A stretch of 64,000 nt of DNA from an uncultured Rhizobiaceae bacterium. Its GTDB lineage: Bacteria > Pseudomonadota > Alphaproteobacteria > UBA7879 > VGCX01. Of the stretch, positions 41 to 17,552 are shown one piece after another. The stretch covers positions 156,120-220,119 of the forward strand of contig CAYGKW010000001.1 in the NCBI GenBank assembly GCA_964350815.1. The letters run 5' to 3'. A program made the position numbers and the translations under genes. The notes under the pieces were generated by a model. That model had not been told where the DNA came from, did no database searches, and saw nothing but the letters and a program-made list of their open reading frames with translations. Each line of letters begins with the position of its first letter. The first letter of the stretch is position 1.

Positions 41-1129
41 TTATACTTTGGTTGCCCTTTTCTTGGCCCCTAGAATTTGTGCAATCCCTGCCCGGAACTG
101 GTCCTTTTGACCTTTTTCCTTAACAATACCATGTTGAAATAAAAACCAAACCAAAGGGTCTGTTATGCGCCATCCTGAACCATATGATGCAATTTGATCA
201 TTTGGGTAAGTGAGGGAAAAAGTAAAAAACTGGTACTTAGGCAAATGACTTCTTATAAAATGCAATGTATTCGCACCATACCAAGCACCCGTGTAGGCCA
301 TTAACTCCCCGGAAATTTGTTGATTATTACTTTGATCAAATCCATTTTTATGTTCAGAATTTCTAAGCAAAATATTGGCATCTGGTAATAATGGGGCCAA
401 TTTTTCAAAGCTGTGGTATCCAATTGCAAATGGTTTTGAAATTTTCTTTTTCCCAGCCATAGGCGCCTTAAGAACTAACTGTAACAAATCTTCAAAAGCG
501 TTGTATTTCAGAGGTAACGTGGGGATAGGCAACCAATAAAAAAAGGAATCATATTTATCAAAATCAATATTGTTTTTTTCCTCACCAATGTTATGAAAAA
601 CAATTGTTTGAAAATCTGGTGTTGATTTAACCTTTCTTAAGGCTGAATTTGATTTTTCTAAATTTTCAAAACATATTTCCAGATCTTTATTTTCAGAGGG
701 ATTTATTTTTAAACCTAAATTATGGGCTTCATTATCCACAAACACTTGTCGGGCCATTGTAACATAATGCGCCAGTTGTGACGTCATGGCCCCAATAACA
801 CCTATATGAATATAATTCGTTGCAAAAAAATCTTTCGCCAAATTATGGTGGCATGTAGGGCACACCTTTTGCTCTGTCGTATGGGCACATAAATCACATT
901 TTTGACGATCACTATCATTTAACCTTTTCAGCAAGTCTTGATTTTGACCCTCAATCAGTCGCCCTTGTTTTTCTATACCCCCTTTGGGATGATAGTGGTT
1001 ATAAACCGCATCTTCTTCGTGGTCACAAATTTCTGGTATTGACTGACACCGCGCCAACGCTTGCTGCTTTGCAAGCTTTGTAAAACAATGGGGACAGGTA
1101 TATTTTCTTTTTATAGATTCTTTAATCAT
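41..1129 (-). CDS. Hypothetical protein with two N-terminal zinc-ribbon-like CxxC pairs (CPHC..C, CDLC..CPTCH). It is the fourth gene of the vWA/PP2C/kinase operon
   Basis: 362-aa ORF that abuts the kinase gene stop (1131) on the same strand. Cys pairs sit in the first 100 residues. No other recognisable motif. Confidence 0.5.
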   Translation of the reverse strand: MIKESIKRKYTCPHCFTKLAKQQALARCQSIPEICDHEEDAVYNHYHPKGGIEKQGRLIEGQNQDLLKRLNDSDRQKCDLCAHTTEQKVCPTCHHNLAKDFFATNYIHIGVIGAMTSQLAHYVTMARQVFVDNEAHNLGLKINPSENKDLEICFENLEKSNSALRKVKSTPDFQTIVFHNIGEEKNNIDFDKYDSFFYWLPIPTLPLKYNAFEDLLQLVLKAPMAGKKKISKPFAIGYHSFEKLAPLLPDANILLRNSEHKNGFDQSNNQQISGELMAYTGAWYGANTLHFIRSHLPKYQFFTFSLTYPNDQIASYGSGWRITDPLVWFLFQHGIVKEKGQKDQFRAGIAQILGAKKRATKV

Positions 1130-1130
1130 A

Positions 1131-3896
1131 TTAAACCTTAAATGGGTGTACTAACTGTAACTTATTTTGCCAAACTGGATCAATTATTTCTAAGCGATAT
1201 TGCCATTTTTTATTCAGTTTTTGGTTTATCAAAACTTCCATCCTATTCGACCTTTTTGCCTCTATACTACATGGCGGAATTTCACCAATGATAATTGCTT
1301 CAGGATCTTGATGGGCTGGGAACCGATCTTCTACAGCAACTAAGCGCATACGCGGTAAATGATTTTCACTATTTGCGGCTATTTGTAAAATAATTTTATG
1401 AGTAAATCCTTTTCCAAACCCGCGCCATTTGGCCTTTTTTACACGAACGTCATAAGCCATACTTGATATGTTTTGGTCCTTTAATGTATAGGGGTCGCCC
1501 AATAATAAAGGCTGTCCACATATAATTGCTGCTGGCCAAACATGAACATTTACATTTTCAGAAGACAATTTTGGTATTCTGGCCTGGCCAACAGAGTCTG
1601 TTTTTTCAACCAAACAACGATACAAGCATTCAATATCATTATGCCTAACTGCAGAGTTTCCCAAGCTTGCCGTTACCAGGCAACAAGGAATACGGGCATT
1701 GGATTCAGGCCATAACCATCGCGCTGTTATAAAATCTTTTTCATTATGGATTTGCTGCCAGTTTGGTTGGGTGAAATTAATGTTTTTATAATAAGTTTGA
1801 AAAGCTTTGCGAACCTTTGCAGCCTTAAGATCATCTTCAATTAAAGGGGCAAATTTTTCTTCTTCCCAATTTTCAACGATAACAGTTGTCTGATCTTCTT
1901 GAATGGCTCTATATACTTTGCGCCATGTAGATGCCAAAGTTTCTGCAACTTTTACTTTTGGTAAAAATATTTCAAATTCAGGGCGTCCAGCGCATATCTT
2001 TGGATCCCATAAATTTGCTAGCGTTTGCAAATCTGATTTTTCATTGGCTTTTTGGAATTTTTTTAATAATTCATACCGTTTTTGTGATTGAAGAATATGG
2101 TCTTTAAGGGTTTCCCCTAAAAAATTTTCTTCTATAAAATCAGATTCATGCAGGGATGGGTGTTTTGTCCACCAGGCATCTACCATTGCATCACTTTTAT
2201 CAATCAATTCCTTTAGGGAATCGACTGCTGATTTATGTACCCGGGCATCTTGAATGAATTTTTTTTGAGGATCATTTAGCCCAAATTTTTGATATATATC
2301 CTTATTTGAATCCCATAATTTCAAAGCTGTTGCATGTTTTTGTTTTTCATAAGATTCTTTGAATGCACGCCAGGATTCAATGCGTTGACGGGCAATATCC
2401 ACCCGGTCAAAAATTTCTGATTCTGCTGATTTAATACTTTCTGGCCATTGATGCTGAAAATATACTTCCAGGATTTGTCGTTCAAAATCTTCGTCAATAA
2501 TTGGATCCCCAAAAGAATCTTTTTTATCTGCCTTCTGAACAGCCTCTTTTAACCTAGTTAGTGATTGGCGGCGTCGACGAATTTCTTCTAAAAATTCTTT
2601 TAAAGGCTTGCCATTCACACGTTCTGTTGGTGTTAAAGGGAAATAATTTAACTTGTCATCTGTACTCCACCAATCCAAAATTTCTTGATCACTTTTACTT
2701 TGCAAACAAAATTCCTTAAATTGGTCCAATACTTGGATATATTCACACGCTTTTTTTATTTGATCCCTGTGCGTTGTAAAACGACTTTCTTTGTGTAAAA
2801 CCGTATTGGTATTCCATAGCCGGGCGATTTCCCGCATATCCTCAGTTCTAATGGCTTGTTCCAGCTTAACCACATCTTCTGTACGGGCCTGGCCTGCCAC
2901 TTCAGGAAAAACATCTACGCCTGTTTTTTCCTTACGATCACACCAAAAACAGGTATCCCCATACATAAAATGTTGGGAATTATGACTGCACGTATGCAAA
3001 GTTTGAATAACTTCAGTTAAAATTGTTTTCCATTTGCTGGCTGTCAATCTTTCACGGGGATTTACAAAACCGTCATTAAAAGTTTTCAAAAAAGCGTCCC
3101 GAATTTTAGGATGGAGTATTTCTTGGGGTAACGCATACATCGGACTTTGCACCTTACTATTTGGTGCAAAAGGCCATTCTCCTTTTAAAATAGCTGCATC
3201 TCTACTTTCGGGTTCTTCGCCTTCTGGCCACTCTCCACTAAAAGGATGATATCCCAACAACAAAAGGTGAATAATGATAGCCAGCCCAAATCGATCATGG
3301 ACCTCAGTACGATCTGTCTTGGAAAGATTTTTCCCTATAAGTTCATGGGGGGTAAACCCTTCAGATCCGACGGGGCAACGATACACATCGCCTTCTTGCT
3401 GAATTTGGAAAGAATCGGCATCTGTAATGGCAACCAGCGCACGATCATTAATCATAAAATTATCAGTTTTAATATCCCCAACCACATACCCTTTTTTATG
3501 CAAGGCTTCCATAATTGAGGCAATGTTATAAGCCGTAACATGTAGGTAGTGCCAGTTAAAACCTGGGGCATTCCGCTTGCGCAGTTTTGCATTGTAAACG
3601 TGGTTTACCCTTAAAGACCCTGAAACACGCGGCATAATAAAACCACAAAACTGTCCTTGATCATCTTGAATTAACCCTTGGGGCCAAGCAATAGATATAT
3701 GATTTTGACTTTTTGTGGGGTCTTCAGGGGGGTTTTGCACCATCGAAAGGACTTTGCTTTCATAATCGTGACGCGGCGCATGATATATTTTTGCGACAAC
3801 TTCAGGAAGGTTTGTCAGCCAAATCGCGCCCTCGCCCCCACTGTCTAAGCGCTGTTTTAAATCAATTTTCTGGCCTTTATCTTTTATTGAATACAT
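1131..3896 (-). CDS. Hanks-type Ser/Thr protein kinase with a long C-terminal region of unknown function (about 650 aa)
   Basis: Gly-rich loop SGGEGAIW, beta3 lysine in VAKIY, catalytic-loop-like VGDIKTDNF and a DFG-equivalent ITDADS. A Cys cluster (CSHNSQH..CFWC) follows the kinase domain. No TM segments seen. Confidence 0.7.
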   Translation of the reverse strand: MYSIKDKGQKIDLKQRLDSGGEGAIWLTNLPEVVAKIYHAPRHDYESKVLSMVQNPPEDPTKSQNHISIAWPQGLIQDDQGQFCGFIMPRVSGSLRVNHVYNAKLRKRNAPGFNWHYLHVTAYNIASIMEALHKKGYVVGDIKTDNFMINDRALVAITDADSFQIQQEGDVYRCPVGSEGFTPHELIGKNLSKTDRTEVHDRFGLAIIIHLLLLGYHPFSGEWPEGEEPESRDAAILKGEWPFAPNSKVQSPMYALPQEILHPKIRDAFLKTFNDGFVNPRERLTASKWKTILTEVIQTLHTCSHNSQHFMYGDTCFWCDRKEKTGVDVFPEVAGQARTEDVVKLEQAIRTEDMREIARLWNTNTVLHKESRFTTHRDQIKKACEYIQVLDQFKEFCLQSKSDQEILDWWSTDDKLNYFPLTPTERVNGKPLKEFLEEIRRRRQSLTRLKEAVQKADKKDSFGDPIIDEDFERQILEVYFQHQWPESIKSAESEIFDRVDIARQRIESWRAFKESYEKQKHATALKLWDSNKDIYQKFGLNDPQKKFIQDARVHKSAVDSLKELIDKSDAMVDAWWTKHPSLHESDFIEENFLGETLKDHILQSQKRYELLKKFQKANEKSDLQTLANLWDPKICAGRPEFEIFLPKVKVAETLASTWRKVYRAIQEDQTTVIVENWEEEKFAPLIEDDLKAAKVRKAFQTYYKNINFTQPNWQQIHNEKDFITARWLWPESNARIPCCLVTASLGNSAVRHNDIECLYRCLVEKTDSVGQARIPKLSSENVNVHVWPAAIICGQPLLLGDPYTLKDQNISSMAYDVRVKKAKWRGFGKGFTHKIILQIAANSENHLPRMRLVAVEDRFPAHQDPEAIIIGEIPPCSIEAKRSNRMEVLINQKLNKKWQYRLEIIDPVWQNKLQLVHPFKV

Positions 3897-4682
3897 TTAT
3901 GGATTTCCTAAAAATTTTGCAATAATAAGTGTACGATCATCATTTGATCGCTGTTGTAGCCGTTCAGATTTTAAGAACTTTTCAAGCTCTGCATCAATCG
4001 TCTTTTTTGATGGCTTATCTTTTAAAAAAACATCAAACGGTTTGAAAAATCCTATATGTGCCTCATTTAATCGGTGATCAATGGCCACATGGTCCAACCC
4101 ATCTGTTGCCAACGCCACAAAATTAATGGGTTCGCGCTGTACAAATGTTTGAACATCTAAGGTTTCATCTGTAACAAAACTTGTTTCATTAACGTATTCC
4201 CCTTTTTTACCAGAAAACACCAAATCATATTCGTCTTCTATGCCGGAAACCAAAAAACCATCACCCACTTGCAAGCCTAACAAACGATCAGGCATAAAGA
4301 TTGCAGCCACTAATGTGCTTGCATAATCATGGGGGTTTTCTTTTTTCTTTTTTGCTTCTTTTCGAATGTCTTCTCTGATAAGCACAGGGATTTGATGCAG
4401 CTGTTGTAAGGTTTTCTCAGATATATCATTTAAATTCAATTCTTTCATATACTGCATTGCTTTTTTTACAGTAAGCTGCGCCCCTTCTTTTGCTTTTGCA
4501 ACAGAACCTGCCCCATCCGCAACAATGGCGATCACCTGATCGGGGCCTATTTTTTCAATTAAATAAGCATCTTGGCATTCGCTATCATGCTGTCTGATTT
4601 GTTTTGCAACGGCACAAGCGCCTGTAATCCATGTCATATCATGTTCCTGTTGCTGCCCAACCTGATACAGAAGGAAGTTCAA
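3897..4682 (-). CDS. PP2C-family Ser/Thr protein phosphatase
   Basis: 261 aa with PP2C metal-binding motifs (IAIVADGAGS, QVGDGFLV, ALATDGL). Directly adjacent to the kinase and overlaps the vWA gene by 44 nt. Confidence 0.65.
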   Translation of the reverse strand: MNFLLYQVGQQQEHDMTWITGACAVAKQIRQHDSECQDAYLIEKIGPDQVIAIVADGAGSVAKAKEGAQLTVKKAMQYMKELNLNDISEKTLQQLHQIPVLIREDIRKEAKKKKENPHDYASTLVAAIFMPDRLLGLQVGDGFLVSGIEDEYDLVFSGKKGEYVNETSFVTDETLDVQTFVQREPINFVALATDGLDHVAIDHRLNEAHIGFFKPFDVFLKDKPSKKTIDAELEKFLKSERLQQRSNDDRTLIIAKFLGNP

Positions 4683-5325
4683 TCATATCACCACCCACCC
4701 TGTTTGTAGAAATACGGCGTACAGAGGATGATAGCCAACGAAATAACTCTTTAAATTTCAGGTCTTGCAATTGGATGGGGGGGCGACTTGCTGGTGCCAC
4801 ACGTTCAAGAATTTCCATATCAGCACCTTCCACAGCAATTGTAAAAAAACTGATACGTTTGTTGGCTTCAAGATCGCTAACACGTGCGGCGGCTTCTTTC
4901 CATTTCTCCCCATCAGTTGGGGCCCCATCTGTAACAAGAAAAACCCAGGGGCGATAATATTGCACGCCATTTGCTCTGTACACTTGTTTACGTTCATCTA
5001 AAGCATCTAAACCCATATCAATCGCACTTCCTAATGGGGTTTTTCCAGCCGTATTTAATATAGGGGGCGTAAAATCATCAATTGTAACAAAAGGTTGTAG
5101 GATATTAACTTCTTTGCCAAAGCTGATAATACTTAACTCTACTCTTAATGCCGCTAATTCATCTTGCTCTACGTCAAATTTAAATTCAGCCAAACCTTGA
5201 TTTAATGATTCAATAGGCGCCCCCTCCATCGAAGCAGAGGTGTCTAGGATTAAAACAACCGGGCATCTATTTTCTGGATTATCCACAAATTCTGGCTTTA
5301 TTAATGACATCATTACCTCGTGCAA
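4639..5325 (-). CDS. von Willebrand factor A (vWA) domain protein, TerY-like
   Basis: MIDAS DxSxS motif in VVLILDTSASMEG, followed by LVTDGAPTDG. No signal peptide or TM, so it looks cytoplasmic. First gene of the operon. Confidence 0.75.
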   Translation of the reverse strand: MHEVMMSLIKPEFVDNPENRCPVVLILDTSASMEGAPIESLNQGLAEFKFDVEQDELAALRVELSIISFGKEVNILQPFVTIDDFTPPILNTAGKTPLGSAIDMGLDALDERKQVYRANGVQYYRPWVFLVTDGAPTDGEKWKEAAARVSDLEANKRISFFTIAVEGADMEILERVAPASRPPIQLQDLKFKELFRWLSSSVRRISTNRVGGDMIELPSVSGWAATGT

Positions 5326-5566
5326 TTATTGTTTTAAGTTTATACTCTACCATAAGGTATTTTATATGTTAATAAATAGTGTTATAGTTAGACTTAAGAG
5401 CACTGCAGATTTTATGTCACACTATAGTGGTAAAAATGCTACAAAACGAAAAAAATACAAAAAAATTAGTATTTTACGTTTACACTAAGACCTAAAAGTG
5501 GCAATCTGTGTTGTAGAAGTAACAAGTCTTATGACTTAAGAAACAATAAACTGGGAGAGTCTCGAT

Positions 5567-6124
5567 ATGGCTGAAAGTACTCAACATAAGTTAGACCGCG
5601 TACGCCCTCCGCGCGTACAAATTACATATGACGTAGAAGTCGGTGATGCAATTGAAATGAAAGAATTGCCTTTCGTTGTAGGTATCATGGCTGATCTTTC
5701 TGGGGACAGAGACCCCGAAAAGGCAATGAAAGCACTTAAAGAACGTAAATTCACAGAAATTGACCGTGATAACTTTAATGATATTATGGCTGACATTACA
5801 CCAAGAGCAGCAATGCGTGTTGAAAACCGCCTTGGTGGTGGTGAAGAAAATGAAGACAGTTCCTTAAGTGTTGCTCTTAACTTTAAAAACATGGAAGATT
5901 TTGATCCGGTAAACATTATTAAACAAGTTGAGCCTATGCGCAAACTATACGAAGCGCGCACTAAGCTTAGTGACCTTATGTCAAAGCTTGACGGTAATGA
6001 TGACTTGGAAGGCATGCTTCAAGATGTTCTTGAAAACACCGAAGTTCGCGAAGAAGTTAAAAAGAACTTAGGTGAAGTTAAGAAGGACGAAGGTGGCGAA
6101 GAAGACGCTAAGCCTAAAAAGTAG
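5567..6124 (+). CDS. tssB: T6SS contractile sheath small subunit TssB (VipA)
   Basis: 185 aa with the canonical N-terminus ...PPRVQITYDVEVGDAIEMKELPFVVGIMADLSGD. Followed directly by tssC. Confidence 0.88.
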   Translation: MAESTQHKLDRVRPPRVQITYDVEVGDAIEMKELPFVVGIMADLSGDRDPEKAMKALKERKFTEIDRDNFNDIMADITPRAAMRVENRLGGGEENEDSSLSVALNFKNMEDFDPVNIIKQVEPMRKLYEARTKLSDLMSKLDGNDDLEGMLQDVLENTEVREEVKKNLGEVKKDEGGEEDAKPKK

Positions 6125-6177
6125 GTTGAACAATAAATAAAAGTAACATACGCTAGTCTTAATATAGGGAGGGCAAA

Positions 6178-7659
6178 ATGGCTGATGAAAAAAAAGCACA
6201 AGGTCAGGCAGCTGAAGGCCAAGAAAACCTAACGGTTTTAGACCAGATTATTCAAAAAGGAAAACTGGCCCGCGACGAAGAACAACTTGTTTATGCACAA
6301 GATATGGTGGATGAATTTGTTGAACAGATTCTTCAAGCAGGGGATACAGTTAGCAACAACACAATTTCATTCATTAACAAGCGCATTCAAGAAGTTGACT
6401 TGCTATTAAGTCAACAGTTAGATGAAATCTTACACCATGAAAACTTTCAAAAAGTGGAAGCAACATGGCGCGGGATGAATTATCTTGTTATGAATTCAGA
6501 AACAAGTACGAAACTTAAACTACGTGTTTTCAACGTTTCCAAAAAAGAACTTCGCGATGATCTTGAAAAAGCAGTAGAATTTGATCAAAGCGTTCTTTTC
6601 AAGAAAATTTACGAGGAAGAATATGGAACATTCGGGGGGAACCCTTATTCATGTCTGGTTGCAGATTATGAATTTGGACCTATTGCCCCAGACATGTCAC
6701 TTCTAACAAAATTGTCAAACGTTGCAGCAGCGGCACATGCCCCTGTGATTTCAGCAGCATCACCTACTTTGTTTGACATGGATGACTTTACTGATTTAGG
6801 TAAGCCTCGTGATTTGGCCAAAATCTTTGAAGGAACAGACAAAATCAAATGGCGTTCATTCCGTGAAAGCGAAGATTCACGTTATGTTGTATTAACAATG
6901 CCACGTGTTTTGATGCGTCTTCCTTACGGGCCGAACACGAATCCTGTAGAAGGCTTGAACTATGAAGAAGTTGTTGATGGTACAACATTAAAAACTTTCA
7001 CATGGGGAAACCCATCTTACATGATGGCACAAAGAATTACTGATGCTTTCGCGAAATATGGCTGGACAGCGGCAATCCGCGGTGTTGAAGGTGGGGGTCT
7101 TGTTGAAGGCTTACCAAGTTACACTTTCAAAACAACTGATGGTGATTTGGCTTTGAAATGCCCAACACAAATTGCAATTACTGACCGTCGTGAAAAGGAA
7201 TTAAGTGATCTTGGCTTCATTTCATTATGTCACTGTAAAGGAACTGACAAAGCGGCTTTCTTTGGTGGGCAAACTGTTCAAAAACCAAAGAAATACAATA
7301 CGCCACAAGCGAATGCGAATGCTGCAACATCTGCACGCATCCCATATTTGCTGGCGGCGTCACGCTTTGCGCATTACATTAAGTCAATCATGCGGGATAA
7401 AATTGGGTCCTTTATGACTCGTGATCAAGTTCAACGCTATTTGCAAACTTGGATCTCTCAGTATGTATTGTTAAATGATGATGCATCACAATCAATGAAA
7501 GCTCGCTTCCCACTTCGTGAAGCCCGTATTGATGTATTTGATGTACCAGGCGAACCTGGAAAATTCCGTGCAACAGTATTCTTAAGGCCGCACTTCCAAT
7601 TGGAAGAATTGACAGCGTCCATCAGGCTTGTTGCTGAATTGCCTCCACCTGCAGGTTGA
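6178..7659 (+). CDS. tssC: T6SS contractile sheath large subunit TssC (VipB)
   Basis: 493 aa that matches the TssC family along its full length (LMRLPYGP, GWTAAIRGVEGGG...). Confidence 0.9.
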   Translation: MADEKKAQGQAAEGQENLTVLDQIIQKGKLARDEEQLVYAQDMVDEFVEQILQAGDTVSNNTISFINKRIQEVDLLLSQQLDEILHHENFQKVEATWRGMNYLVMNSETSTKLKLRVFNVSKKELRDDLEKAVEFDQSVLFKKIYEEEYGTFGGNPYSCLVADYEFGPIAPDMSLLTKLSNVAAAAHAPVISAASPTLFDMDDFTDLGKPRDLAKIFEGTDKIKWRSFRESEDSRYVVLTMPRVLMRLPYGPNTNPVEGLNYEEVVDGTTLKTFTWGNPSYMMAQRITDAFAKYGWTAAIRGVEGGGLVEGLPSYTFKTTDGDLALKCPTQIAITDRREKELSDLGFISLCHCKGTDKAAFFGGQTVQKPKKYNTPQANANAATSARIPYLLAASRFAHYIKSIMRDKIGSFMTRDQVQRYLQTWISQYVLLNDDASQSMKARFPLREARIDVFDVPGEPGKFRATVFLRPHFQLEELTASIRLVAELPPPAG

Positions 7660-7716
7660 TCCTAGATCAGCCCAGGTTGGCGATTATGTGGAATAGAATA
7701 AGAACATAGGTGTAAG

Positions 7717-8247
7717 ATGAAGAACGATATAGTTGTAATGATGGTTGAAAATGTTGACGCAATGTGTGGAAGCGTCAAGTACGAAGGATATGCAAGAGGA
7801 ATTCGTCTTCTTGAATTTCCTGAAGTCCAAACCATTAACTCTGCAGAAGCATCCCACAGTATCGGAATTCGTCCAAACAACGGGGAATGTTTACCCATTA
7901 CTGTACGCACACACTATGACAAAAGTGTTCCTAAAGGCCTTGAAGCCATGGTTAAAGGTACAAACCTAACGAAGATTAGTATTTTCCACCTTGTATCAAC
8001 TGGCGGAGACACACTTACCTTAAATAGGTATATTGAAATGTCAGATGTTTATTTAATTAAATACAGCCTGCACTATTTTGATGCATTTAACCACGAATCA
8101 CCGCAAGGTGGGGTTGCCACATACACATTTAAATTTGATGAGTTTTCATCTGTTGCCAATGTGTTTGATGATCAAATGCAAGAACAAGGTAAAACTGGTT
8201 ACATGACCAACAATACAAAACGCTTAACAGGTAACACAGGCGGATAA
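7717..8247 (+). CDS. hcp: Hcp (T6SS inner tube protein)
   Basis: 176 aa, the right size for Hcp. N-terminus MKNDIVVMMVENVDAMCGSVKYEGYARGIRLLEF.. follows the Hcp pattern. Sits between tssC and tssE. Confidence 0.6.
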   Translation: MKNDIVVMMVENVDAMCGSVKYEGYARGIRLLEFPEVQTINSAEASHSIGIRPNNGECLPITVRTHYDKSVPKGLEAMVKGTNLTKISIFHLVSTGGDTLTLNRYIEMSDVYLIKYSLHYFDAFNHESPQGGVATYTFKFDEFSSVANVFDDQMQEQGKTGYMTNNTKRLTGNTGG

Positions 8248-8271
8248 TTTTTTTAAAAAGCGGAGTAAGCC

Positions 8272-8928
8272 ATGGTAGAAAGACCATACAATTCATTAGA
8301 AAGCAGTCAAGTTAACGATGGGCAGATTGTTGCCTCTCCTACGTGTTTACTAACTTCAACAGTTCATGAAGGTGGGGTTAGCGTTGGAACTATTGAAAAT
8401 GCACATGAAGTATTTTATTACTTTATTTCTGCTTCCCGTGCATCATTACCTGGGTATCATGGACTTCATGAATCCACAGCAAAGATTCGTTTTAGTGCTT
8501 TGAACATTGCATTACACAACAACAGCTATACAGAACCTTTCATGAAGGCTGTATACAGTGGGGCAAGTATTGGGGATATTGAAATCACAAGTCTTCAACA
8601 CTCTGGTGAAGAATCTTTACCAAGCTTCACAATGCAATACAAAAATTGTCGCCCAGTAAGCGGTAAAGTTTCCAGATTAAACGTTGGCGGTCGCTTAGGT
8701 GAAAATGTCATGAGTCGTGGGCATTATGAAGATCGCCTTGATATTGTCAATCGTTCTGTTGATGCAGATGATCCGTATAATCGCACAGCAGAAGTTACAG
8801 CATGTTGCCTTAAAATTCTTTTTGATCAGGTATCCATTGTTTATCATGCATTAACTGAAACTGGTGAAGTTGACGGTCAAATTGCAGGTGGATTTAACTT
8901 GGTTAAAAACACAACAGAGCTTGAATAA
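8272..8928 (+). CDS. Hypothetical protein, possibly a divergent second Hcp-like paralog
   Basis: 218 aa. The central and C-terminal segments (PFMKAVYSGASIGDIEITSLQHSGEE...; TAEVTACCLKILFDQ) resemble Hcp beta-strand patterns. Embedded in the T6SS operon. Confidence 0.3.
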   Translation: MVERPYNSLESSQVNDGQIVASPTCLLTSTVHEGGVSVGTIENAHEVFYYFISASRASLPGYHGLHESTAKIRFSALNIALHNNSYTEPFMKAVYSGASIGDIEITSLQHSGEESLPSFTMQYKNCRPVSGKVSRLNVGGRLGENVMSRGHYEDRLDIVNRSVDADDPYNRTAEVTACCLKILFDQVSIVYHALTETGEVDGQIAGGFNLVKNTTELE

Positions 8929-8935
8929 ATAGGTC

Positions 8936-9493
8936 GTGGCAAGAAAGTGGACAGACAAAGGGGCAGATGCCCCCTTATTCGACAAGCTTCGTGATGAAAA
9001 TCCACAAACCAAAGAAGAACATCCTATCTTTAAAAAATATGATCGCAAGGAACTTTTAGTATCTGTACAACAAGAAGTTTCAAACATCTTAAACACCCGT
9101 TGTAAAATGCCATACGAAGAGTACAAAAATTTGGATCCTTCTGATCTAGAGTATGGATTTCCTGAACTATTTGGCCTGCCTGACCAATCTTATGCTGACC
9201 CACGATCCCCAGAAGGGGCAGATAAAATGGCAGATTTAATTGCCAATGCCATTGAAATATTTGAACCTAGGTTAGCAAATATTTCTATCGAAATACAAGA
9301 TTTCCACAAACAAAATCAATCTTTATCTGTTGGTGTCAGTGGAGATTTAGTGATAGGGGAAATACGCGAACCAATTTCATTCCCTGTTTCTGTTCAAGAC
9401 TATGGATCTGTCGCAACGCAAGAAAAAGTTGGGTATGACACAACTGCCAAAATAGAGTATAATAAAAATGATTCTGAGGGGGCAGATGAATGA
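8936..9493 (+). CDS. tssE: T6SS baseplate protein TssE (gp25-like)
   Basis: Carries the LFDKLRDE, ILNTR, FGLPD and FEPRL motifs typical of TssE. Apparent GTG start. Its 3' end overlaps tssF. Confidence 0.8.
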   Translation: MARKWTDKGADAPLFDKLRDENPQTKEEHPIFKKYDRKELLVSVQQEVSNILNTRCKMPYEEYKNLDPSDLEYGFPELFGLPDQSYADPRSPEGADKMADLIANAIEIFEPRLANISIEIQDFHKQNQSLSVGVSGDLVIGEIREPISFPVSVQDYGSVATQEKVGYDTTAKIEYNKNDSEGADE

Positions 9494-11298
9494 ATGACTT
9501 TCACGAAAAACATTTACAGTATTATCAGCGTGAAATGTCCTTCCTACGTAAAATGGGGGGCATCTTTTCTGCCAAATACCCTAAAATTGCCAAACGTCTT
9601 GGCCTTAGTGATACAACTGCGTCAGACCCGCATGTTGAACGACTCATTGAATCTTTTGCCTATCTAACTTCCTATTTACAAAAAGATATAGACAACCAAT
9701 TTCCACGCATTTCATCCGCGTTATTAAATACATTATACCCCCAGCAAGTAAGCTTGATTCCGCCCATGAGTATTTGCCAATTTGAACCGGACCCAGAGGC
9801 TGGATTAACAACTGCCTACGATATTCCACGAAACTTTTCCATGTATGTTGAAGGCGATACAGGGGATGTCAGCCGATTTAAAACAGCCTACCCTGTTGAA
9901 ATGTGGCCTATTAAAGTAACTGATATTGCCATGGTAAAATCAAATCTTTATGATCTTGGGGAAGAGCTGACAAAGCATACTTATGTTTTACGCATTAAAT
10001 TAAAATCTTTATCCGAAGATTTAAGTATCTTAAATTTAAAAAAACTTCGGTTTTTTATTAACATGCCGCGTGCACAAGCGAATGTTTTGTATCAACTTTT
10101 GTTTGAAGAATCTATGAAAATTGGTGTGGTTGGGGCAGATGATAAACCAGCCTATATCACCCCAAAGGATAGTATTTCACAAGTTGGGTTCTCGCCTGAT
10201 GAATCTGTTTTACATGTTCCCAAAAATGGACACCCGGCCTATGCCCTTTTACAGGAATACTTCTTATTTCAAAAAAAGTTTATGTTTTTTGATATTGATA
10301 ACCTAAATTTCAACAACGCCGGACAAACAGCAGAAATTTTAATTCCTTTGTGTCATTCACAAGATGCCAAAAGTTTGGTTTTTGGGGAACGATCCCTTCT
10401 TTTAAATTGCAGCCCTATTGTTAATTTATTTTATAAAACATCTGAACCCATTCGCCTGGATCACCAACGTGTTGAATATCGTTTAATTGCTGACCATCGG
10501 CGTGAAATGACAACAGAAATTCACAGCATTGACCGTGTCTTTTGTTCAGGGGAAGAGGAAAAAGACACAATTGAAATTGATCCTTATTTTTCATACAACC
10601 ATCATTCTTTAAGCGAAGATAAAATGGGGTTTTGGCATGCACGACGGGTCCCTGCAGCAAATAAAAACATACCCGGAACAGATATGCAAATTTCTTTTGT
10701 AAACTTAAATTTTTCACCAAATAGTCCCCCTGTTGATGTGGCTTATGCCCGGGTTTTGTGTACAAACCGACAACTTGCGCCGACTGTCCCTGCGAATGCA
10801 ATTTTAAATGAAGATGAGGGAACCCCAACCAAGTCTATACGTTGTTTATATCAACCTACTGATACAACATATCCTTCCGAAGAAGGGGCAACCCAATGGC
10901 AATTGATATCCCAACTTGCTTTGAATTATTTATCTTTGTCTAACAATGAAAAAAGCTTGGACGCCTTAAAGGAAATGTTACGCTTGTATTCCGGTGGCGG
11001 GAAAAAAATTAATGATGTTGAAATTAACAGCATGATAAAAATGGATTGCGAACCAATTGTTCGCCGATTTGGAAAAGATGCTTGGCGCGGTTTTACAAAA
11101 GGAACATCTGTCACCCTTACAGTTGATGAAGGTGCCTCTGCAAGCTTAGGATCTTTCTTATTTTCATCTGTGCTTGCCCATTTTTTTGGTTTATATACAA
11201 CCATAAATTCTTTTGTAGAGGTATCTATTAAAAGCACACGACGGGAAGGAGTATGGAAAAAATGGCCACCGATCGCCGGCGCACAAGAACTTCTGTAG
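9490..11298 (+). CDS. tssF: T6SS baseplate protein TssF
   Basis: 602 aa with an N-terminus YYQREMSFLRKMGGIFSAKYPKIAKRL typical of TssF. Lies between tssE and tssG. Confidence 0.8.
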   Translation: MNDFHEKHLQYYQREMSFLRKMGGIFSAKYPKIAKRLGLSDTTASDPHVERLIESFAYLTSYLQKDIDNQFPRISSALLNTLYPQQVSLIPPMSICQFEPDPEAGLTTAYDIPRNFSMYVEGDTGDVSRFKTAYPVEMWPIKVTDIAMVKSNLYDLGEELTKHTYVLRIKLKSLSEDLSILNLKKLRFFINMPRAQANVLYQLLFEESMKIGVVGADDKPAYITPKDSISQVGFSPDESVLHVPKNGHPAYALLQEYFLFQKKFMFFDIDNLNFNNAGQTAEILIPLCHSQDAKSLVFGERSLLLNCSPIVNLFYKTSEPIRLDHQRVEYRLIADHRREMTTEIHSIDRVFCSGEEEKDTIEIDPYFSYNHHSLSEDKMGFWHARRVPAANKNIPGTDMQISFVNLNFSPNSPPVDVAYARVLCTNRQLAPTVPANAILNEDEGTPTKSIRCLYQPTDTTYPSEEGATQWQLISQLALNYLSLSNNEKSLDALKEMLRLYSGGGKKINDVEINSMIKMDCEPIVRRFGKDAWRGFTKGTSVTLTVDEGASASLGSFLFSSVLAHFFGLYTTINSFVEVSIKSTRREGVWKKWPPIAGAQELL

Positions 11299-12311
11299 TA
11301 GAGCGTGCTTATAAAGACGCAGATAAATTTGAATTTCATGCAATGGTCAAATTGTTGGAAAGCATGGAGAAAGACTGTACCCCTTTAGGCGAAGGCCCAG
11401 ATCCAACAAAAGAAGCATTACGCCTGCAAGCGCGTGTTGCCGAAGGGTTTCCAAACACAGATATTTTTAAACTTATTGACCCCAAAACAAAAGAAATTCC
11501 ACCTTTATTGATAACTAATTTCTTGGGCATTGCTGGGGCACATGGCCCCTTGCCTTCCCCTTATACCCAGCAGATAATAGAACGTACATCAAGACGTGAT
11601 ACAGGGTTCAGAGATTTTATTGATATCTTTAATCATCGGTTAATATCTTTATTACATCGCATACGAAAAAAACATTGGATTGGCATTTCCAACCAGCCTT
11701 CAGAAGAATCCTTAATGGGAAAATGTTTGAAGGCTTTACTTGGAATCTTTAACCCTTATTTAGAAGACCGCTTAGGTGTTCCTGACCAAAGCTTAACACA
11801 TTATGCCGGTTTATTATGGCAACGCCCTAGATCTGCATTTGGACTACGTCAACTTCTTGAAGGTTTTTTTCGAATGCCTGTTGAAGTTCAAGAATTGAAA
11901 GGCAAATGGAATTTTGTACCCCACGACCAACTTACAAGTATTGGAAGTCAGGGAAAATTTAATGTGCTTGGGCAATCTGCCGTTATTGGCTCAAGGTTTT
12001 GGGATCAACAAGCCCTATTCACTGTAAAAATTGGCCCAATGGATTTAGATCAGTATGTTGACTTCTTGAAACCTGGAAAATCATGGCGTACAATCTGTAG
12101 TATAATTCGATATTATGTAGGTAATGATCAAGATTTCATGATAAACTTAGTTTTAAAAAAAGAACAGGTTCCAAAGCCCAGGCTGGGTTATGGTGTTGCT
12201 ATTGGATGGACAAACTGGTTGAATCGCACAAAAACTGAATCCTATATAGATGATAATCAATGCCAATTAACAACACGTTCTTTTAAAGTTTCAGCAGGAG
12301 GCCATAATTAA
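11253..12311 (+). CDS. tssG: T6SS baseplate protein TssG
   Basis: N-terminal FEFHAMVKLLE motif, equivalent to FDFFQAVRLLE in TssG. Overlaps the tssF 3' end, so the start may be at 11262 instead. Confidence 0.75.
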   Translation: MEKMATDRRRTRTSVVERAYKDADKFEFHAMVKLLESMEKDCTPLGEGPDPTKEALRLQARVAEGFPNTDIFKLIDPKTKEIPPLLITNFLGIAGAHGPLPSPYTQQIIERTSRRDTGFRDFIDIFNHRLISLLHRIRKKHWIGISNQPSEESLMGKCLKALLGIFNPYLEDRLGVPDQSLTHYAGLLWQRPRSAFGLRQLLEGFFRMPVEVQELKGKWNFVPHDQLTSIGSQGKFNVLGQSAVIGSRFWDQQALFTVKIGPMDLDQYVDFLKPGKSWRTICSIIRYYVGNDQDFMINLVLKKEQVPKPRLGYGVAIGWTNWLNRTKTESYIDDNQCQLTTRSFKVSAGGHN

Positions 12312-14974
12312 TGCAAAATTTACAATCTTTAATTGGAAACTTAAACACAACTTGCAAAAGATGTTTGGAAGAATCTGCACAATTATGTATTACCAATACA
12401 AATGCAACTGTTGATATTGAACATTTACTATTTCAAATTCTGGAAAAGCCTGCAACGGATCTTTCTGTTATTGCAAAATACTATGAAATTGATTTAAAGC
12501 GTGCAAAGCAACAGCTTCAAAATGCAATAAATGATTTCAAACGTGGCAACAATAAAACACCTTCCATGTCTGCTCAGTTAGTTAAATTATTGGAAAGGGC
12601 GTGGGTTATCACTTCCTTGAATCTGAAACAAACTCAGGTACGCTCAGCCGCGATATTAATGGCGATTTTAAAAACTGAAGAATTATTAGGCGTAATTGTA
12701 AATAGCTGCCAAGAATTATTAAAAATTCCACGTAATAAACTGGAAGAAGATATTCTAGAATTAATTAAATCCAGCCCAGAAGATGTAGGGGAAGGAAATT
12801 TAAGCAGCAATACAGGGGGCAGCAAAAGCAGTTCTTCTGATGGAAAATCCCCGACGCAAGCCTTGGATAAATTTACAATTGATCTTACACGCCAAGCCCG
12901 TGAAGGGAAAATTGATCCCATTGAAGGGCGTGATTCAGAAATCCGCCAGATGCTGGATGTTTTGGGACGCCGGCGTCAAAACAACCCCATTTTAACAGGG
13001 GATGCAGGTGTTGGGAAAACAGCAGTTGTTGAAGGCCTTGCCTTGCGCATTGCAAATGGGGATGTTCCTGATAGTTTGAAAAAAGTAAGCATTCGCACTT
13101 TGGATCTTGGTTTACTTGAAGCCGGGGCTGGTATGAAAGGTGAATTTGAAAACAGGCTGAAATCCGTTATTCAAGAAGTACAAAGTTCTTTAACCCCAGT
13201 TATTTTGTTTATTGATGAAGCCCATACATTAATCGGCGCCCAACAAAATGCCCAAAATGATGCAGCCAACCTTTTAAAGCCTGCTTTGGCCAGGGGTGAA
13301 TTGCGAACGATTGCTGCAACCACTTGGGATGAATATAAAAAATTCTTTGAAAAAGACGCAGCCCTTACCCGTCGTTTCCAAGTTATAAAAGTTGAAGAGC
13401 CTGACGAAGAAACAGCTGTGAAAATGTTGCGCTGTTTAACAGAAAAGTTAGAACACCATCACAAAGTTTTGATACTGGATTCTGCCATTAAAGATGCTGT
13501 TCGTTTGTCCACTCGATATATTGGGGGCCGCAAATTACCAGACAAGGCAGTCAGTGTTTTAGATACTGCCTGCGCACGCGTACACTTAGCACAAAACGCA
13601 ACCCCTGAAGCCGTTGAAACATTAACCCGTGATTTGGAACTTTTAGAAATTGAAAAATCACGCTTACAAAAAGAAGAATTAAGTGGCCATGTTCACCAAG
13701 ATCGATTGGCCCAAATTTCTGTCGATGCGCAAACAAAACAAAAAGAATTGGATGAGGTAAAAAAAACTTGGGAAGAAGAATTAAACCTTGTAAAAGAAAT
13801 TAACCAACTTCACAACAACATCTTAGAAATAAATGAAAAAAATGGCCCTGACCATCACGACCTAAAAGATTTAAAAATAAAAATCAGTAAACTTAAAAAA
13901 GATTTGGAAACCAAACAAGGGGAAAAAGGGTTGGTCCCTGCATGTGTTGATGGCAATGTTGTTGCCCAAGTTGTTGCAGGGTGGACGGGCATTCCTTTAG
14001 GTAAAATGTTGCGCGATGAAATCAATACCGTGTTAACCTTAAAAGATATTATGGCCAATCGCTTGATCGGGCAAAAACAAGCTGTGGATACCATTGCAAA
14101 ACATATTGTGACATACCGTGCAAACTTAGATGAGCCTGGAAAACCAGTAGGCGTCTTTTTATTAGTTGGACCCAGCGGTATTGGGAAAACAGAAACAGCC
14201 TTGGCTTTGGCTGACACACTATATGGCGGGGAACGAAATCTTGTCACCATTAACATGTCTGAATACCAAGAATCTTATACTGTTTCTTCTTTGAAAGGGT
14301 CGCCTCCCGGATATGTAGGATATGGTGAAGGGGGTGTTCTGACCGAAGCCGTCAGACGCAACCCATACAGCGTTGTTCTTTTAGATGAAATTGAAAAAGC
14401 CCACCCGGACGTAATGGAATTATTCTATCAAGTTTTTGATAAAGGAATCTTGGAAGATGCAGAAGGTATTGAAATTGATTTTAAAAATACCGTTATTTTA
14501 ATGACAACCAATTTGGCATCTGAAACCATTATGAAGGAATGCAAAAATCCGAAAAAAATGCCGGATGCCAAGAAGGTTTCAGATACCATTCGTCCTGAAT
14601 TGGCTGCCCATTTTAAACCTGCTTTGCTTGGGCGCATGACAATTGTTCCGTATTATCCTTTAACAAGTGAAGAAATATCTGAAATTGTAAAACTTAAATT
14701 GGATCGCATCAAAAGTCGATTTGAAGGAAATCATGGGGCTGACTTTTCTTACAGCAAAGATGTCATTAAATTCATCACAGATCGATGTGATGATCCTGAT
14801 TCCGGGGCACGTAATATTGATTACGTTATTAACCAAAACTTACTTCCCCTTTTATCTGCAGAAGTTTTAAAACATATTGCTGATGAAACACCCTTTGGCA
14901 GTATAAAAGTTTCCATCAAACGGGATGAATTTATATGTGATTTTGAGGCATCAAAAATTGCAAACAAAGCTTAA
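12311..14974 (+). CDS. clpV: T6SS AAA+ ATPase ClpV (TssH)
   Basis: 887 aa with two Walker A motifs (GDAGVGKTAV and GPSGIGKTE) and ClpB-like architecture. Its ATG overlaps the tssG stop. Confidence 0.9.
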   Translation: MQNLQSLIGNLNTTCKRCLEESAQLCITNTNATVDIEHLLFQILEKPATDLSVIAKYYEIDLKRAKQQLQNAINDFKRGNNKTPSMSAQLVKLLERAWVITSLNLKQTQVRSAAILMAILKTEELLGVIVNSCQELLKIPRNKLEEDILELIKSSPEDVGEGNLSSNTGGSKSSSSDGKSPTQALDKFTIDLTRQAREGKIDPIEGRDSEIRQMLDVLGRRRQNNPILTGDAGVGKTAVVEGLALRIANGDVPDSLKKVSIRTLDLGLLEAGAGMKGEFENRLKSVIQEVQSSLTPVILFIDEAHTLIGAQQNAQNDAANLLKPALARGELRTIAATTWDEYKKFFEKDAALTRRFQVIKVEEPDEETAVKMLRCLTEKLEHHHKVLILDSAIKDAVRLSTRYIGGRKLPDKAVSVLDTACARVHLAQNATPEAVETLTRDLELLEIEKSRLQKEELSGHVHQDRLAQISVDAQTKQKELDEVKKTWEEELNLVKEINQLHNNILEINEKNGPDHHDLKDLKIKISKLKKDLETKQGEKGLVPACVDGNVVAQVVAGWTGIPLGKMLRDEINTVLTLKDIMANRLIGQKQAVDTIAKHIVTYRANLDEPGKPVGVFLLVGPSGIGKTETALALADTLYGGERNLVTINMSEYQESYTVSSLKGSPPGYVGYGEGGVLTEAVRRNPYSVVLLDEIEKAHPDVMELFYQVFDKGILEDAEGIEIDFKNTVILMTTNLASETIMKECKNPKKMPDAKKVSDTIRPELAAHFKPALLGRMTIVPYYPLTSEEISEIVKLKLDRIKSRFEGNHGADFSYSKDVIKFITDRCDDPDSGARNIDYVINQNLLPLLSAEVLKHIADETPFGSIKVSIKRDEFICDFEASKIANKA

Positions 14975-14984
14975 AAGTTAACAA

Positions 14985-17552
14985 ATGGCTGGACTTATTT
15001 CCCAAGAAAATACCTATCTGACCATCACAACAAAATTGGGTGCAGATAAAATTATCCTTAATCATTTTAAGGCTGAAGAAAAATTAAATGGGCTTTTTGA
15101 ATTTAATTTAGAACTTTATATCCCATATGCCACGGATGCCAAAAATTATGACTTAGACTTTACAAAACTTATTGAAACTGAAGTTACCATTACCCTGACT
15201 TTAGGAAAAAAAATACGTTACTTTCATGGATTAATTACTGAATTAATACAAGGTCCGACAGTTGCAACTGGGATGGAAAAAATGCAACGCACCCATGAAC
15301 GGACTTATTTTTATGCCAAAGTACATCCCACGGCCTGGTTAATGCAATTAACTGAAAACTGTGAAATTCATCAAAATAAATCGGCGATGGATATTATTAA
15401 AGAATTGTTAGGCAAACATAAAATTACTTTTAAAGACCTAACATCCAAGCGCGGAAAATTAAAACGCGAATACTGTGTTCAATATAACGAAAGTGATTTT
15501 GCCTTTATTTCAAGATTAATGGAAAATGAAGGCATTTATTATTTTTTCAAACATGAAAAAGCCAAACACACGATGTATCTTGCTGACGGCGGGAAACCTT
15601 GGGAGAAGCATACGGACAAAGATTTAGCAACTGTTACAGTTTATAACACCCAACACCCAACACCTGTACAATTCAGTCTGTACGATATGCGTGTATCAAA
15701 ACAAATTGTTCCTTCAAGCTTTACTTATAATGATTATGATTTTGAAAAACCGACCACTAAATTAAAGGCAGAATCAAAAGGCGAAGGAAAAGGTCGGGAT
15801 TATTATCACTATCCAGGGAAATATATTGTACAAAAAAATGGGATGGCTCTGACGGATATGCGTTTAGAATCCCTTGAATACCCATCTGATGCCATCCATT
15901 CAAAATCAGATATTCCTATGTTTGAAATTGGCCATTCTTTTAAATTGGATAATGCCTTAAGAAAAGATATTAACAAAAAAGAATTTGTTATTTTTTCTAT
16001 TCACCATGAAGCCAAAATTCAAGCAGAACCTGATGAAAATAATGAAGGGGAAAAGCTTGTAAAAACAGAATATGATGGCGAAGTTGTTTATGAAAACAAG
16101 GTTTGCTTTTTCAGCAAAGACCTTCCTTACCGTCCCGCACTAAAAACTCCGTGCCCAAAAATTCACGGCACCCAAACGGCAACCGTTTCTGGTAAAGCCG
16201 GTGAAGAAATTTGGACAGATAAGTATGGTCGTGTTCTTCTTAAGTTTCATTGGGATCTAAGCCCCACAAAAGATGATAAAGTTTCGTGCTTTGTCCGTGT
16301 TTCCCAGGCCTGGACAGGCAAACAATGGGGGGTTTTGTTTACCCCACGTGTCGGCCAAGAAGTTGTTGTCACATACCTAAATGGGAACCCTGACAAACCC
16401 CTGGTGACTGGGTGTGTTTATAATGGGGATAACCTTCCCCCCTATTTACCGGCTGAAAAAACGAAAAGCACCATTAAAACAAATACAAGCCCTAAAGGTG
16501 GTGGTTTTAACGAATTACGATTTGAAGATAAAAAAGACGCTGAGGAAGTTTTTATCCATGCCCAAAAAGATTACAACACAACTGTTTTAAATGGGGAACG
16601 TACTGTTACAATTGAAGGTGCTGAAGATTGTGGCCATGATAAATTAACCATTCGCAAAGGGGATCGTACCTTTTTAATTGAGGAAGGCAGTCAATCCGAT
16701 ACCTTAAAAAAAGGGGACAAGTCCACCCTTCTTGAAAAAGGTAATGATACAGAAACATTAAAAGATGGAAATCAAACCATTACCCTTGAAAAAGGGAACC
16801 AAGCAACAACCCTGAAAAAAGGAAATCAATCTGTTACCTTAAAAGGGGGCAATCAAGAAATTGATATCAAAGGAAATCAAACTGAAACCATTTCTGGAAA
16901 TCAAACCGTCACAATAAAGGGGAATAGAAAAGTTTCAGTTACTGGCAATGATACTTTATCCGTTAAAGGAAATATGACCGTTGATGTTATGGGAAATATT
17001 ACAGCCAAAGCAAAAGGTAATGTTACAATTGAGGCCATGGGCATGATCAATATTAAAACACCAACTGGTATGATAACAGTTGAAGGAGGCATGATCACTG
17101 CAAAGTCCAAGATGCTTACGACAGACACACAAGGTCCTGCAACACACAGTGCCATGATGATGACGATAGAATCAAAAGGACCTTTGGCAATGAAAGGATC
17201 CCCTATTGCAATTGGCGCACCAATGATGACAATGGCAGCCGGCGGATCTGCCGCAATGACAACGGATACTGGCGGTGGTCTTGAAATGGGTGGCGGTGGA
17301 GATGTTGGCTTAAGTTCAACAGGCCCCATGAAAATGAGCAGTACCGCGCCCGCAAAAATGGATAGTCCCGCTGGTGTAAAAATTTCTTCTGGTGCAAGTT
17401 CTATTGACTTAAAGGCAGCAATGGGCACAATTAAATCTGCTATGTTAACGGTTGAAGGTTCTGGAATGATGGCAGTAAAAAGTGGTGGGATGTTAAATGT
17501 TCAAAGTGGTGGATTGGTTAATATTAAAGGCTCAATGGTAATGATAGGATAA
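14985..17552 (+). CDS. vgrG: VgrG spike protein with a C-terminal gp5-like beta-helix
   Basis: 855 aa. N-terminal gp27/gp5 region, then reiterated (T/S)xKGNQ/GNxT octapeptide-like repeats at aa 560-700 that form a beta-helix, then a Gly/Met-rich tail. Confidence 0.85.
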   Translation: MAGLISQENTYLTITTKLGADKIILNHFKAEEKLNGLFEFNLELYIPYATDAKNYDLDFTKLIETEVTITLTLGKKIRYFHGLITELIQGPTVATGMEKMQRTHERTYFYAKVHPTAWLMQLTENCEIHQNKSAMDIIKELLGKHKITFKDLTSKRGKLKREYCVQYNESDFAFISRLMENEGIYYFFKHEKAKHTMYLADGGKPWEKHTDKDLATVTVYNTQHPTPVQFSLYDMRVSKQIVPSSFTYNDYDFEKPTTKLKAESKGEGKGRDYYHYPGKYIVQKNGMALTDMRLESLEYPSDAIHSKSDIPMFEIGHSFKLDNALRKDINKKEFVIFSIHHEAKIQAEPDENNEGEKLVKTEYDGEVVYENKVCFFSKDLPYRPALKTPCPKIHGTQTATVSGKAGEEIWTDKYGRVLLKFHWDLSPTKDDKVSCFVRVSQAWTGKQWGVLFTPRVGQEVVVTYLNGNPDKPLVTGCVYNGDNLPPYLPAEKTKSTIKTNTSPKGGGFNELRFEDKKDAEEVFIHAQKDYNTTVLNGERTVTIEGAEDCGHDKLTIRKGDRTFLIEEGSQSDTLKKGDKSTLLEKGNDTETLKDGNQTITLEKGNQATTLKKGNQSVTLKGGNQEIDIKGNQTETISGNQTVTIKGNRKVSVTGNDTLSVKGNMTVDVMGNITAKAKGNVTIEAMGMINIKTPTGMITVEGGMITAKSKMLTTDTQGPATHSAMMMTIESKGPLAMKGSPIAIGAPMMTMAAGGSAAMTTDTGGGLEMGGGGDVGLSSTGPMKMSSTAPAKMDSPAGVKISSGASSIDLKAAMGTIKSAMLTVEGSGMMAVKSGGMLNVQSGGLVNIKGSMVMIG

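Follow-up and report, generated by a model that had tools for sequence, protein, structure and literature searches.

Closest described systems and the locus under study

In Escherichia coli, the kinase YegI (catalytic residues K39 and D141) is encoded in a yegL(vWA)-pphC-yegI operon. Kaur et al. 2020 (PMC7159879) described DO-GTPases that carry two zinc ribbons at the N terminus, along with a theme in which DO-GTPases occur together with a PP2C phosphatase, a vWA protein, and an active kinase (with zinc ribbon and beta-rich domain); they place DO-GTPase2 in conflict systems whose sensing module is variable and non-enzymatic. The PpkA kinase of Pseudomonas aeruginosa sits in the membrane and has its vWA domain in the periplasm, and a 2026 review of type VI secretion system (T6SS) accessory factors names PpkA/TagE, PppA/TagG, and Fha/TagH, with neither a GTPase nor a stand-alone vWA factor among them. 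We analyzed a kinase gene that shares features with each of these systems. It lies in a 64,000-nucleotide stretch of DNA from an uncultured alphaproteobacterium (GenBank assembly GCA_964350815.1, contig CAYGKW010000001.1, positions 156,120 to 220,119), here called the window, and occupies positions 1131..3896 on the minus strand, encoding 921 amino acids from an ATG start (stop codon included).

The protein belongs to the vWA-PP2C-kinase triads and is linked to DO-GTPase systems. Two thirds of it, at the C terminus, are non-enzymatic: helical repeats, about seven in number and each roughly 50 residues long, make up a rod that ends in two immunoglobulin (Ig)-like sandwiches. We lean toward the view that this tail is a docking arm that couples a phospho-switch of the YegI/TerY-P type to a (pseudo)GTPase encoded by the next gene. 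The tail architecture, the pseudo-GTPase partner, and a recurrent, Fha-less linkage to T6SS genes are absent from the literature we searched, and the cassette is not described in the literature on T6SS accessory factors and on the T6SS of Holosporales.

Architecture of the kinase tail

The minus strand carries a single unbroken open reading frame (ORF) of 921 aa, and a plus-strand reading of 1131-3896 was rejected for its many stops. Public data hold a protein identical to the kinase (P0001). Counting this protein, 28 full-length homologs of 896 to 959 aa (30 to 82% identity) align with the kinase from end to end, and this colinearity led us to reject a frameshift fusion as the origin of the long tail.

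A first-pass annotation of the window had described the tail as matching no recognizable motif. No family is indeed assigned to it: Pfam searches with each of the 28 family members at an E value of up to 1 returned only kinase models and nothing for the tail, NCBIfam and PADLOC gave no match to the tail, and a tail profile compared with all PDB sequences reached a best E value of 0.33. Structural models and profile comparison nevertheless revealed internal order. The full-length AlphaFold2 model, built with 45 homologs, has a mean predicted local distance difference test score (pLDDT) of 87.6, and a tail-only model of residues 330-921 has a mean pLDDT of 85.0; the predicted template modeling score (pTM) is 0.49 in each, values at which the single domains appear trustworthy.

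Residues 338-706 (1779..2885, minus strand) form an arm that is wholly helical in the models, apart from three tiny hairpins, with a pLDDT of about 80-94. In the homolog alignment, a D..(I/L)..LW motif with a conserved tryptophan returns about every 50 residues along this arm (W361, W410, W484, W528, W576, W630, and W677). We divided the family alignment into seven units, whose profiles were then compared with one another in hhalign. Units U2 and U5 matched at a probability of 97.5%, U1 and U4 at 95.6%, U1 and U6 at 93.6%, U1 and U2 at 92.2%, U4 and U5 at 88.3%, and U3 and U5 at 85.8%. As a control, every unit was also run against the other units with their sequences reversed. These 42 comparisons gave a maximum score of 13.4 and none exceeded 85% probability, while 14 of the 21 real pairs scored above 13.4, with a top score of 51.1. 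Because the real pairs exceed the reversed-sequence control, the helical repeats in the arm are real.

The remainder of the tail, residues 707-921 (1134..1778, minus strand), is modeled as two tandem Ig/fibronectin type III (FN3)-like beta-sandwiches, with residues 715-916 all beta. Foldseek of the tail against the PDB gave no match at an E value of 1e-3 or below. The tail is not a well-known domain such as a TPR or peptidoglycan-binding domain. The best Foldseek matches, at E values of 1.7e-3 to 5e-2, were every one a beta-sandwich pair: the C-terminal barrels of transglutaminase 2 and factor XIII, PECAM Ig1-2, FN3 pairs, arrestin, and Fab light chains. The viral library BFVD likewise returned weak, generic tandem beta-sandwich matches, and neither library returned anything for the helical part. 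Conserved tail positions are mostly buried core Trp, Phe, and Pro, plus a few charged residues, and no catalytic constellation is visible among them in the family alignment.

We scanned 1.84 billion representative proteins exhaustively with HMMER, using the tail alone, and recovered 33 proteins at an E value of 1e-3 or below; nearly all of those examined are kinases. A profile of the tail alignment run against a set of 5.8 billion proteins found 5 close relatives only, in a search limited by its word index. With the domain searches empty and the HMMER scan yielding only 33 proteins, we conclude that the tail is undescribed and very rare. The helical arm with LW-type repeats and the tandem Ig-like domains thus make up a new, very rare protein module.

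Kinase domain and zinc knuckle

The expectation that only the first 280 residues or so would be kinase-like proved accurate, and we place a Hanks-type Ser/Thr kinase domain at residues 1-300 (2997..3896, minus strand). The Pfam Pkinase model PF00069 covers residues 113-262 only (E value 7.6e-11; 42.3 bits against a gathering cutoff of 31.7), and the kinase fold extends over residues 1-300 in the AlphaFold model. Sequence matches in the PDB were all kinase catalytic domains and fell within residues ~92-246. Foldseek of the full model against the PDB gave 1961 matches at an E value of 1e-3 or below, of which the 50 listed are all protein kinases; PknB of Mycobacterium tuberculosis was among the matches of the full kinase model, with a TM-score of 0.73. 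The catalytic set consists of the glycine loop G21-E22-G23, K36, D141/K143/N146, and D159-x-D161-S162-F163. G21/E22/G23, K36, D141, N146, and D159/D161 are invariant or at least 90% conserved across alignments of 28 to 45 sequences. Profile score, fold, and catalytic residues all place the domain among the Hanks-type kinases (PF00069), and because the catalytic residues are invariant or nearly so, the kinase should be active.

Directly after the kinase domain is a predicted zinc knuckle at residues 301-325 (2922..2996, minus strand), modeled as a beta-hairpin followed by a helix. It contains the cysteine cluster that the first-pass annotation had described as zinc-ribbon-like, spelled C303-SHNSQ-H309-FMYGDT-C316-FW-C319. 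C303, H309, C316, and C319 are invariant in 45 homologs and would bind a metal ion. Since the four putative ligands are invariant even in kinases with wholly different tails, the knuckle is part of the conserved kinase module rather than of the variable tail.

The tail in a conserved phospho-switch operon

The operon consists of four minus-strand genes, with the kinase in third place: vWA, PP2C, kinase, and a 362-aa partner with two zinc ribbons. The first gene (4639..5310, minus strand) encodes a stand-alone vWA protein (PF00092, E value 3.4e-9) with an intact metal ion-dependent adhesion site (MIDAS) motif (DTSAS ... TDG); it is the most conserved gene of the cassette, with 58-68% identity across lineages. 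The second (3897..4637, minus strand) encodes the PP2C phosphatase (PF13672, E value 2.3e-37). Its ORF extends to 4682 from a TTG codon, and the gene call in L171 is 246 aa from an ATG.

Kyte-Doolittle profiles in 19-residue windows revealed no transmembrane segment in the kinase or its three operon partners, and no signal segments were found either. The maximum for the kinase, 1.51, lies inside the kinase core, in line with the earlier description of the remaining two thirds as soluble. All components of the cassette are therefore predicted to be cytoplasmic.

As in the window, the kinase is preceded by a vWA gene and a PP2C gene in 108 of the 125 related loci whose flank is long enough, which places the window operon among the vWA-PP2C-kinase triads of the YegLKI/TerY-P type. 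Cyanobacterial relatives share the first ~335 residues at 45-50% identity and carry other tails at the same position (TPR, WD40, FGE-sulfatase, IMS, SLH, dCache, MORN, or PDZ). Because the triad is conserved while the C-terminal modules differ between relatives, the tail takes up a variable "specificity" slot in a conserved family of phospho-switch kinases. In the cyanobacterial loci (L010-L083), the module of kinase and zinc knuckle with upstream vWA and PP2C is very common; their C-terminal IMS modules are ARC6-like, and this modular kinase family looks little studied.

A decayed DO-GTPase2 relative accompanies the arm

The gene following the kinase (41..1129, minus strand) encodes the 362-aa partner, with two N-terminal zinc ribbons and a degenerate DO-GTPase2-like domain. 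The window protein itself falls below the Pfam threshold for DO-GTPase2 (PF19993). The orthologue beside P0025 (in L086) is annotated with this family, a match we confirmed at an E value of 1.3e-9. A profile of six partner orthologues matched the part of the protein P0137 that comprises two zinc ribbons and a GTPase domain, at an hhalign probability of 98% and an E value of 1.7e-13. Two CxxC...CxxC zinc ribbons are invariant in the partner alignment. The downstream family is thus homologous to DO-GTPase2 proteins with N-terminal zinc ribbons.

The GTP-binding motifs have not been retained in the window. Walker A reads GPKNVGKS in L086 versus IGAMTSQL in the window partner, Walker B reads FFDMSGED versus FHNIGEE, and G4 reads LPKLD versus YHSFE. 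The window partner has thus lost the P-loop, the G3 Asp, and the G4 motif, and it also has a deletion of ~30 residues. The P-loop remains intact in three deep-branching loci only (L013, L086, and L090), and 11 other loci, a group that takes in every T6SS-linked partner examined, have lost it. Judged by these motifs, the partner is a DO-GTPase2 relative that has decayed into a pseudo-enzyme, with a GTPase predicted to be dead in most members.

Two lines of evidence tie the partner to the arm. All tblastn matches to the partner fall in loci whose kinase bears the arm tail (13 of 14 informative loci, all but L088), and the same search in more than 100 loci with other kinase tails gave no match. 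In addition, the operon of the high-GC locus L090 runs vWA, PP2C, a shorter kinase of 678 aa, and then P0137. Residues 53-507 of P0137 match the repeat arm and the first sandwich (E value 3.3e-6 in a library-wide HMMER scan). Here the arm, detached from the L090 kinase, is part of one protein with an intact DO-GTPase2 (motif GPPGVGKS) as well as two zinc ribbons, to which it is fused. An arm found on the kinase in one lineage and on the GTPase in another is classic evidence that it mediates contact between the two, and so the partner may dock physically to the arm. Together, gene fusion and gene neighborhood give the arm module a concrete candidate partner. The tail and the partner are also the fastest-evolving parts of the cassette, at 20-34% and 22-33% identity, versus 58-68% for the vWA protein. 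The suggestion that the tail is a sensor or target-binding part fits its position in the variable slot and its strict accompaniment by the partner gene.

The L090 locus (3666-12843) has further features. A small TerY_C-like ORF lies upstream of the triad, the arm-GTPase fusion is followed by an uncharacterized 624-aa ORF (possibly a cryptic analogue of GAP1), and type II secretion/pilus genes are nearby.

Linkage to T6SS genes

On the opposite strand, diverging from the cassette, a T6SS core operon (5567..17552, plus strand) starts 241 bp upstream of the vWA gene. It comprises tssB, tssC, hcp, an hcp-like ORF, tssE, tssF, tssG, clpV, and vgrG, as assigned by Pfam. The operon genes beside the kinase and the adjacent T6SS, which the first-pass annotation had not taken in, carry most of the functional information. 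The divergent intergenic region (5326..5566, no strand) is AT-rich, spans 241 bp, and presumably carries both promoters, one on the vWA side and one on the tssB side.

We judged adjacency to T6SS genes at the cassette locus and its flank. In 8 of 15 informative lineages, with kinase identity as low as 33%, a divergent tssB...clpV/vgrG cluster adjoins the cassette. Relatives that share the head-to-head arrangement with tssB have kinases that are 96% (L097/L171), 79% (L004/L091), 45% (L093), 41% (P0007), 37% (P0017), and 33% (P0019) identical to that of the window. More distant kinases are T6SS-linked as well, in the high-GC L102, with tssBCEFG-vgrG, and in L095/96, in another arrangement with vgrG upstream. 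By estimate rather than computation, adjacency this frequent seems unlikely to arise by chance, because such a core cluster makes up only a small part of a genome.

Within the window (5567-64000), the T6SS cluster comprises sheath, tube, baseplate, ClpV, and VgrG genes only. The Pfam scan covered most ORFs of at least 150 aa in the 64-kb window, and among these ORFs it found none of TagF, TagQRST, and tssJ/K/L/M/A. The membrane complex must therefore be encoded elsewhere or be unusual. Directly after vgrG, a MORN_2-repeat protein (17557-18525, plus strand) could be a T6SS effector or adaptor. Between hcp and tssE, a 218-aa ORF without a Pfam match (8272-8928, plus strand) may be a second, divergent Hcp, and its counterpart in L084 has a weak Hcp match.

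Proposed function and alternatives

If the tail is the docking arm that we favor, the 921-aa protein would be the kinase of a cytoplasmic vWA/PP2C/Ser-Thr kinase phospho-switch, and its arm would dock the two-zinc-ribbon, DO-GTPase2-derived protein encoded directly downstream. A partner without GTP-binding motifs would act as a fixed adaptor or phospho-substrate, not as a switch. The kinase would write, and PP2C would erase, a phosphorylation mark on the arm-partner complex or on a client held by the MIDAS site of the vWA protein, and these phosphorylation targets are accordingly putative.

In T6SS-linked lineages, including that of the window, the output of the switch could be control (licensing) of T6SS baseplate and sheath assembly. 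This role would be akin to that of PpkA/PppA/Fha in Pseudomonas, performed with different parts. We offer this extension of the docking-arm reading to T6SS control tentatively, by analogy. In its boldest form, which we also consider doubtful, the cassette would be an unrecognized Fha-independent, post-translational T6SS checkpoint in uncultured (Holosporales-like) alphaproteobacteria, in which a cytoplasmic kinase with a ~370-residue arm, its Ig-like domains, a pseudo-enzyme, and a MIDAS vWA protein would dock baseplate or sheath and license firing by reversible phosphorylation. To our knowledge, the membrane-bound PpkA/Fha route is the only one for which T6SS regulation by Ser/Thr phosphorylation is understood. 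The repeated head-to-head position beside tssB suggests that a second, cytoplasmic phospho-route may exist in poorly studied, probably host-associated bacteria.

Several observations count against the docking-arm reading or its T6SS extension. Although single domains are modeled well, the pTM of 0.49 makes their mutual arrangement unreliable. L088, a full-length family member, has no partner gene adjacent. In the T6SS-linked L102 and L095/96, the kinases retain no more than the first ~4 repeats, and the partner is missing from L102, so neither the full arm nor the pseudo-GTPase is strictly required for any T6SS link. Seven of the 15 lineages show no adjacency (P0005, P0018, P0021, the UBA7879 group, P0025, P0022, and L090); the P0018 cassette (L087 6114-12095) divergently adjoins fliL/fliM instead of T6SS genes, and the P0005 locus (L089 9308-13806) has no PP2C gene altogether. 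The T6SS-adjacent lineages are related, so the eight cases are not independent, and some ordinary synteny survives. Finally, the scanned window ORFs include no FHA gene or T6SS membrane-complex gene and hence no substrate candidate.

In one alternative, the cassette is a general cytoplasmic signaling module unrelated to T6SS, serving for example the envelope, motility, or host adaptation, and the adjacency is inherited synteny of an alphaproteobacterial clade. The seven lineages without adjacency fit this explanation, as do the placement of one beside flagellar genes and of another near type II secretion/pilus genes, and the pseudouridine synthase that the window and L001 share on the other flank is residual plain synteny. 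Inheritance alone accounts less well for an adjacency that holds down to 33% kinase identity, that occurs also in high-GC L102 and, differently arranged with VgrG upstream, in L095/96, and whose head-to-head placement with tssB recurs in seven tssB-adjacent lineages. We regard a module with no relation to T6SS as unlikely.

We give a similarly low probability to an anti-phage or conflict system of the TerY-P/DO-GTPase kind, in which a fast-evolving tail would sense the invader and the position beside T6SS genes would reflect clustering of conflict genes. The gene triad is that of TerY-P, the tail and partner evolve fastest in the cassette, a TerY_C ORF lies upstream in L090, and the partner derives from DO-GTPase2, a conflict-system family according to Kaur et al. 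2020. However, PADLOC gave no significant TerY-P match: the vWA protein reached an E value of 0.047 against TerY, and the kinase and PP2C matched only unrelated or generic models, weakly. Assignment of the kinase as a PADLOC TerY-P component is thus without support, as only generic kinase models matched it. The cassette also contains no effector domain, its GTPase switch appears dead in most members, and the loci lie among housekeeping genes rather than defense islands. Nor is a GAP1 component detectable. GAP1 (GAP1-N/M/C), GASH, and FNIII-repeat components had no Pfam match in the 28 kinase tails or in the annotations of neighboring genes. A GAP1 or GASH identity of the tail is therefore unsupported, and the locus does not have the GAP1 plus GASH or FNIII component that defines a DO-GTPase/GAP1 system.

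It is very improbable that the tail is a known domain (a TPR/HEAT-type solenoid, GAP1, GASH, or an FN3 array) so diverged that sequence methods miss it. Its beta part does have a generic Ig/FN3 fold, and GAP1-N2-type DO-GTPase systems normally include an FNIII-repeat protein, but no Pfam family (GAP1/GASH entries included, if in the library) matches the 28 members, the PDB profile search was empty, and Foldseek yielded nothing for the helical part.

Other features of the window

Beyond the partner ORF, the same genome carries the housekeeping genes for a pseudouridine synthase, dnaX, ybaB, and recR. Hosts of the arm-bearing loci are alphaproteobacterial metagenome-assembled genomes, for example of Holosporaceae UBA7879 or labeled "Alphaproteobacteria bacterium."

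Farther into the window, a 2109-aa polymorphic toxin (38258-44587, minus strand) combines a DUF637 (CdiA/haemagglutinin-like) region with a colicin-DNase/WHH HNH nuclease at its C terminus. Behind it come small ORFs that are candidate immunity genes, and on its flanks are a Toprim/AAA_25 primase-helicase and a phage-type integrase. The segment, which includes 36446-38271 and 45091-49798 (both minus strand), has a GC content of 0.42-0.46 versus ~0.36. Because of the raised GC content and the primase-helicase and integrase flanks, this segment is probably a genomic island.

Comparison with known systems

Like the PpkA/TagE-PppA/TagG-Fha/TagH pathway, the window locus (as well as those of seven further lineages) has genes for a Hanks kinase and a PP2C beside T6SS genes, and a vWA domain belongs to the signaling set, in PpkA as a periplasmic domain. 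PpkA, however, is a transmembrane protein with a fused vWA, whereas the window cassette is predicted to be all cytoplasmic, with the vWA as a separate protein. The scanned window ORFs also contain no FHA protein, TagQRST, or TagF. The window thus does not show the combination of a transmembrane kinase with a periplasmic sensor and an FHA substrate that characterizes the T6SS threonine phosphorylation pathway.

Closer in gene content is the YegL-PphC-YegI/TerY-P triad, which has the same three genes in the same order. The N-terminal kinase module is homologous, with K36/D141 in the window kinase corresponding to K39/D141 in YegI. The differences lie in the absence of transmembrane segments from the window kinase and its partners, in the kinase tail, which here consists of the repeat arm and Ig-like domains, and in a fourth gene, encoding the zinc ribbon-pseudo-GTPase, that belongs to the window unit. 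The PADLOC TerY-P models, moreover, do not match the window proteins.

The third GAP1-N2 theme of Kaur, Burroughs, Iyer, and Aravind 2020 (PMC7159879) shares with the window a DO-GTPase2-type protein with two N-terminal zinc ribbons, together with PP2C and stand-alone vWA proteins. That theme is described there as restricted to actinobacteria, whereas the arm-bearing loci come from alphaproteobacterial genomes, and the sections of the paper that we consulted mention neither a helical-repeat arm nor T6SS linkage. The arm-bearing loci also differ in having no detectable GAP1 or separate FNIII protein, and in the loss of G1, G3, and G4 from the GTPase of most arm-linked members. By fold alone, the FNIII component could have its counterpart in the two Ig/FN3-like sandwiches of the tail. 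The association of kinase, PP2C, and vWA with DO-GTPases, described for actinobacteria in that paper, extends with these loci to alphaproteobacteria, and the arm-linked members document a GTPase that appears to be decaying into a pseudo-enzyme.

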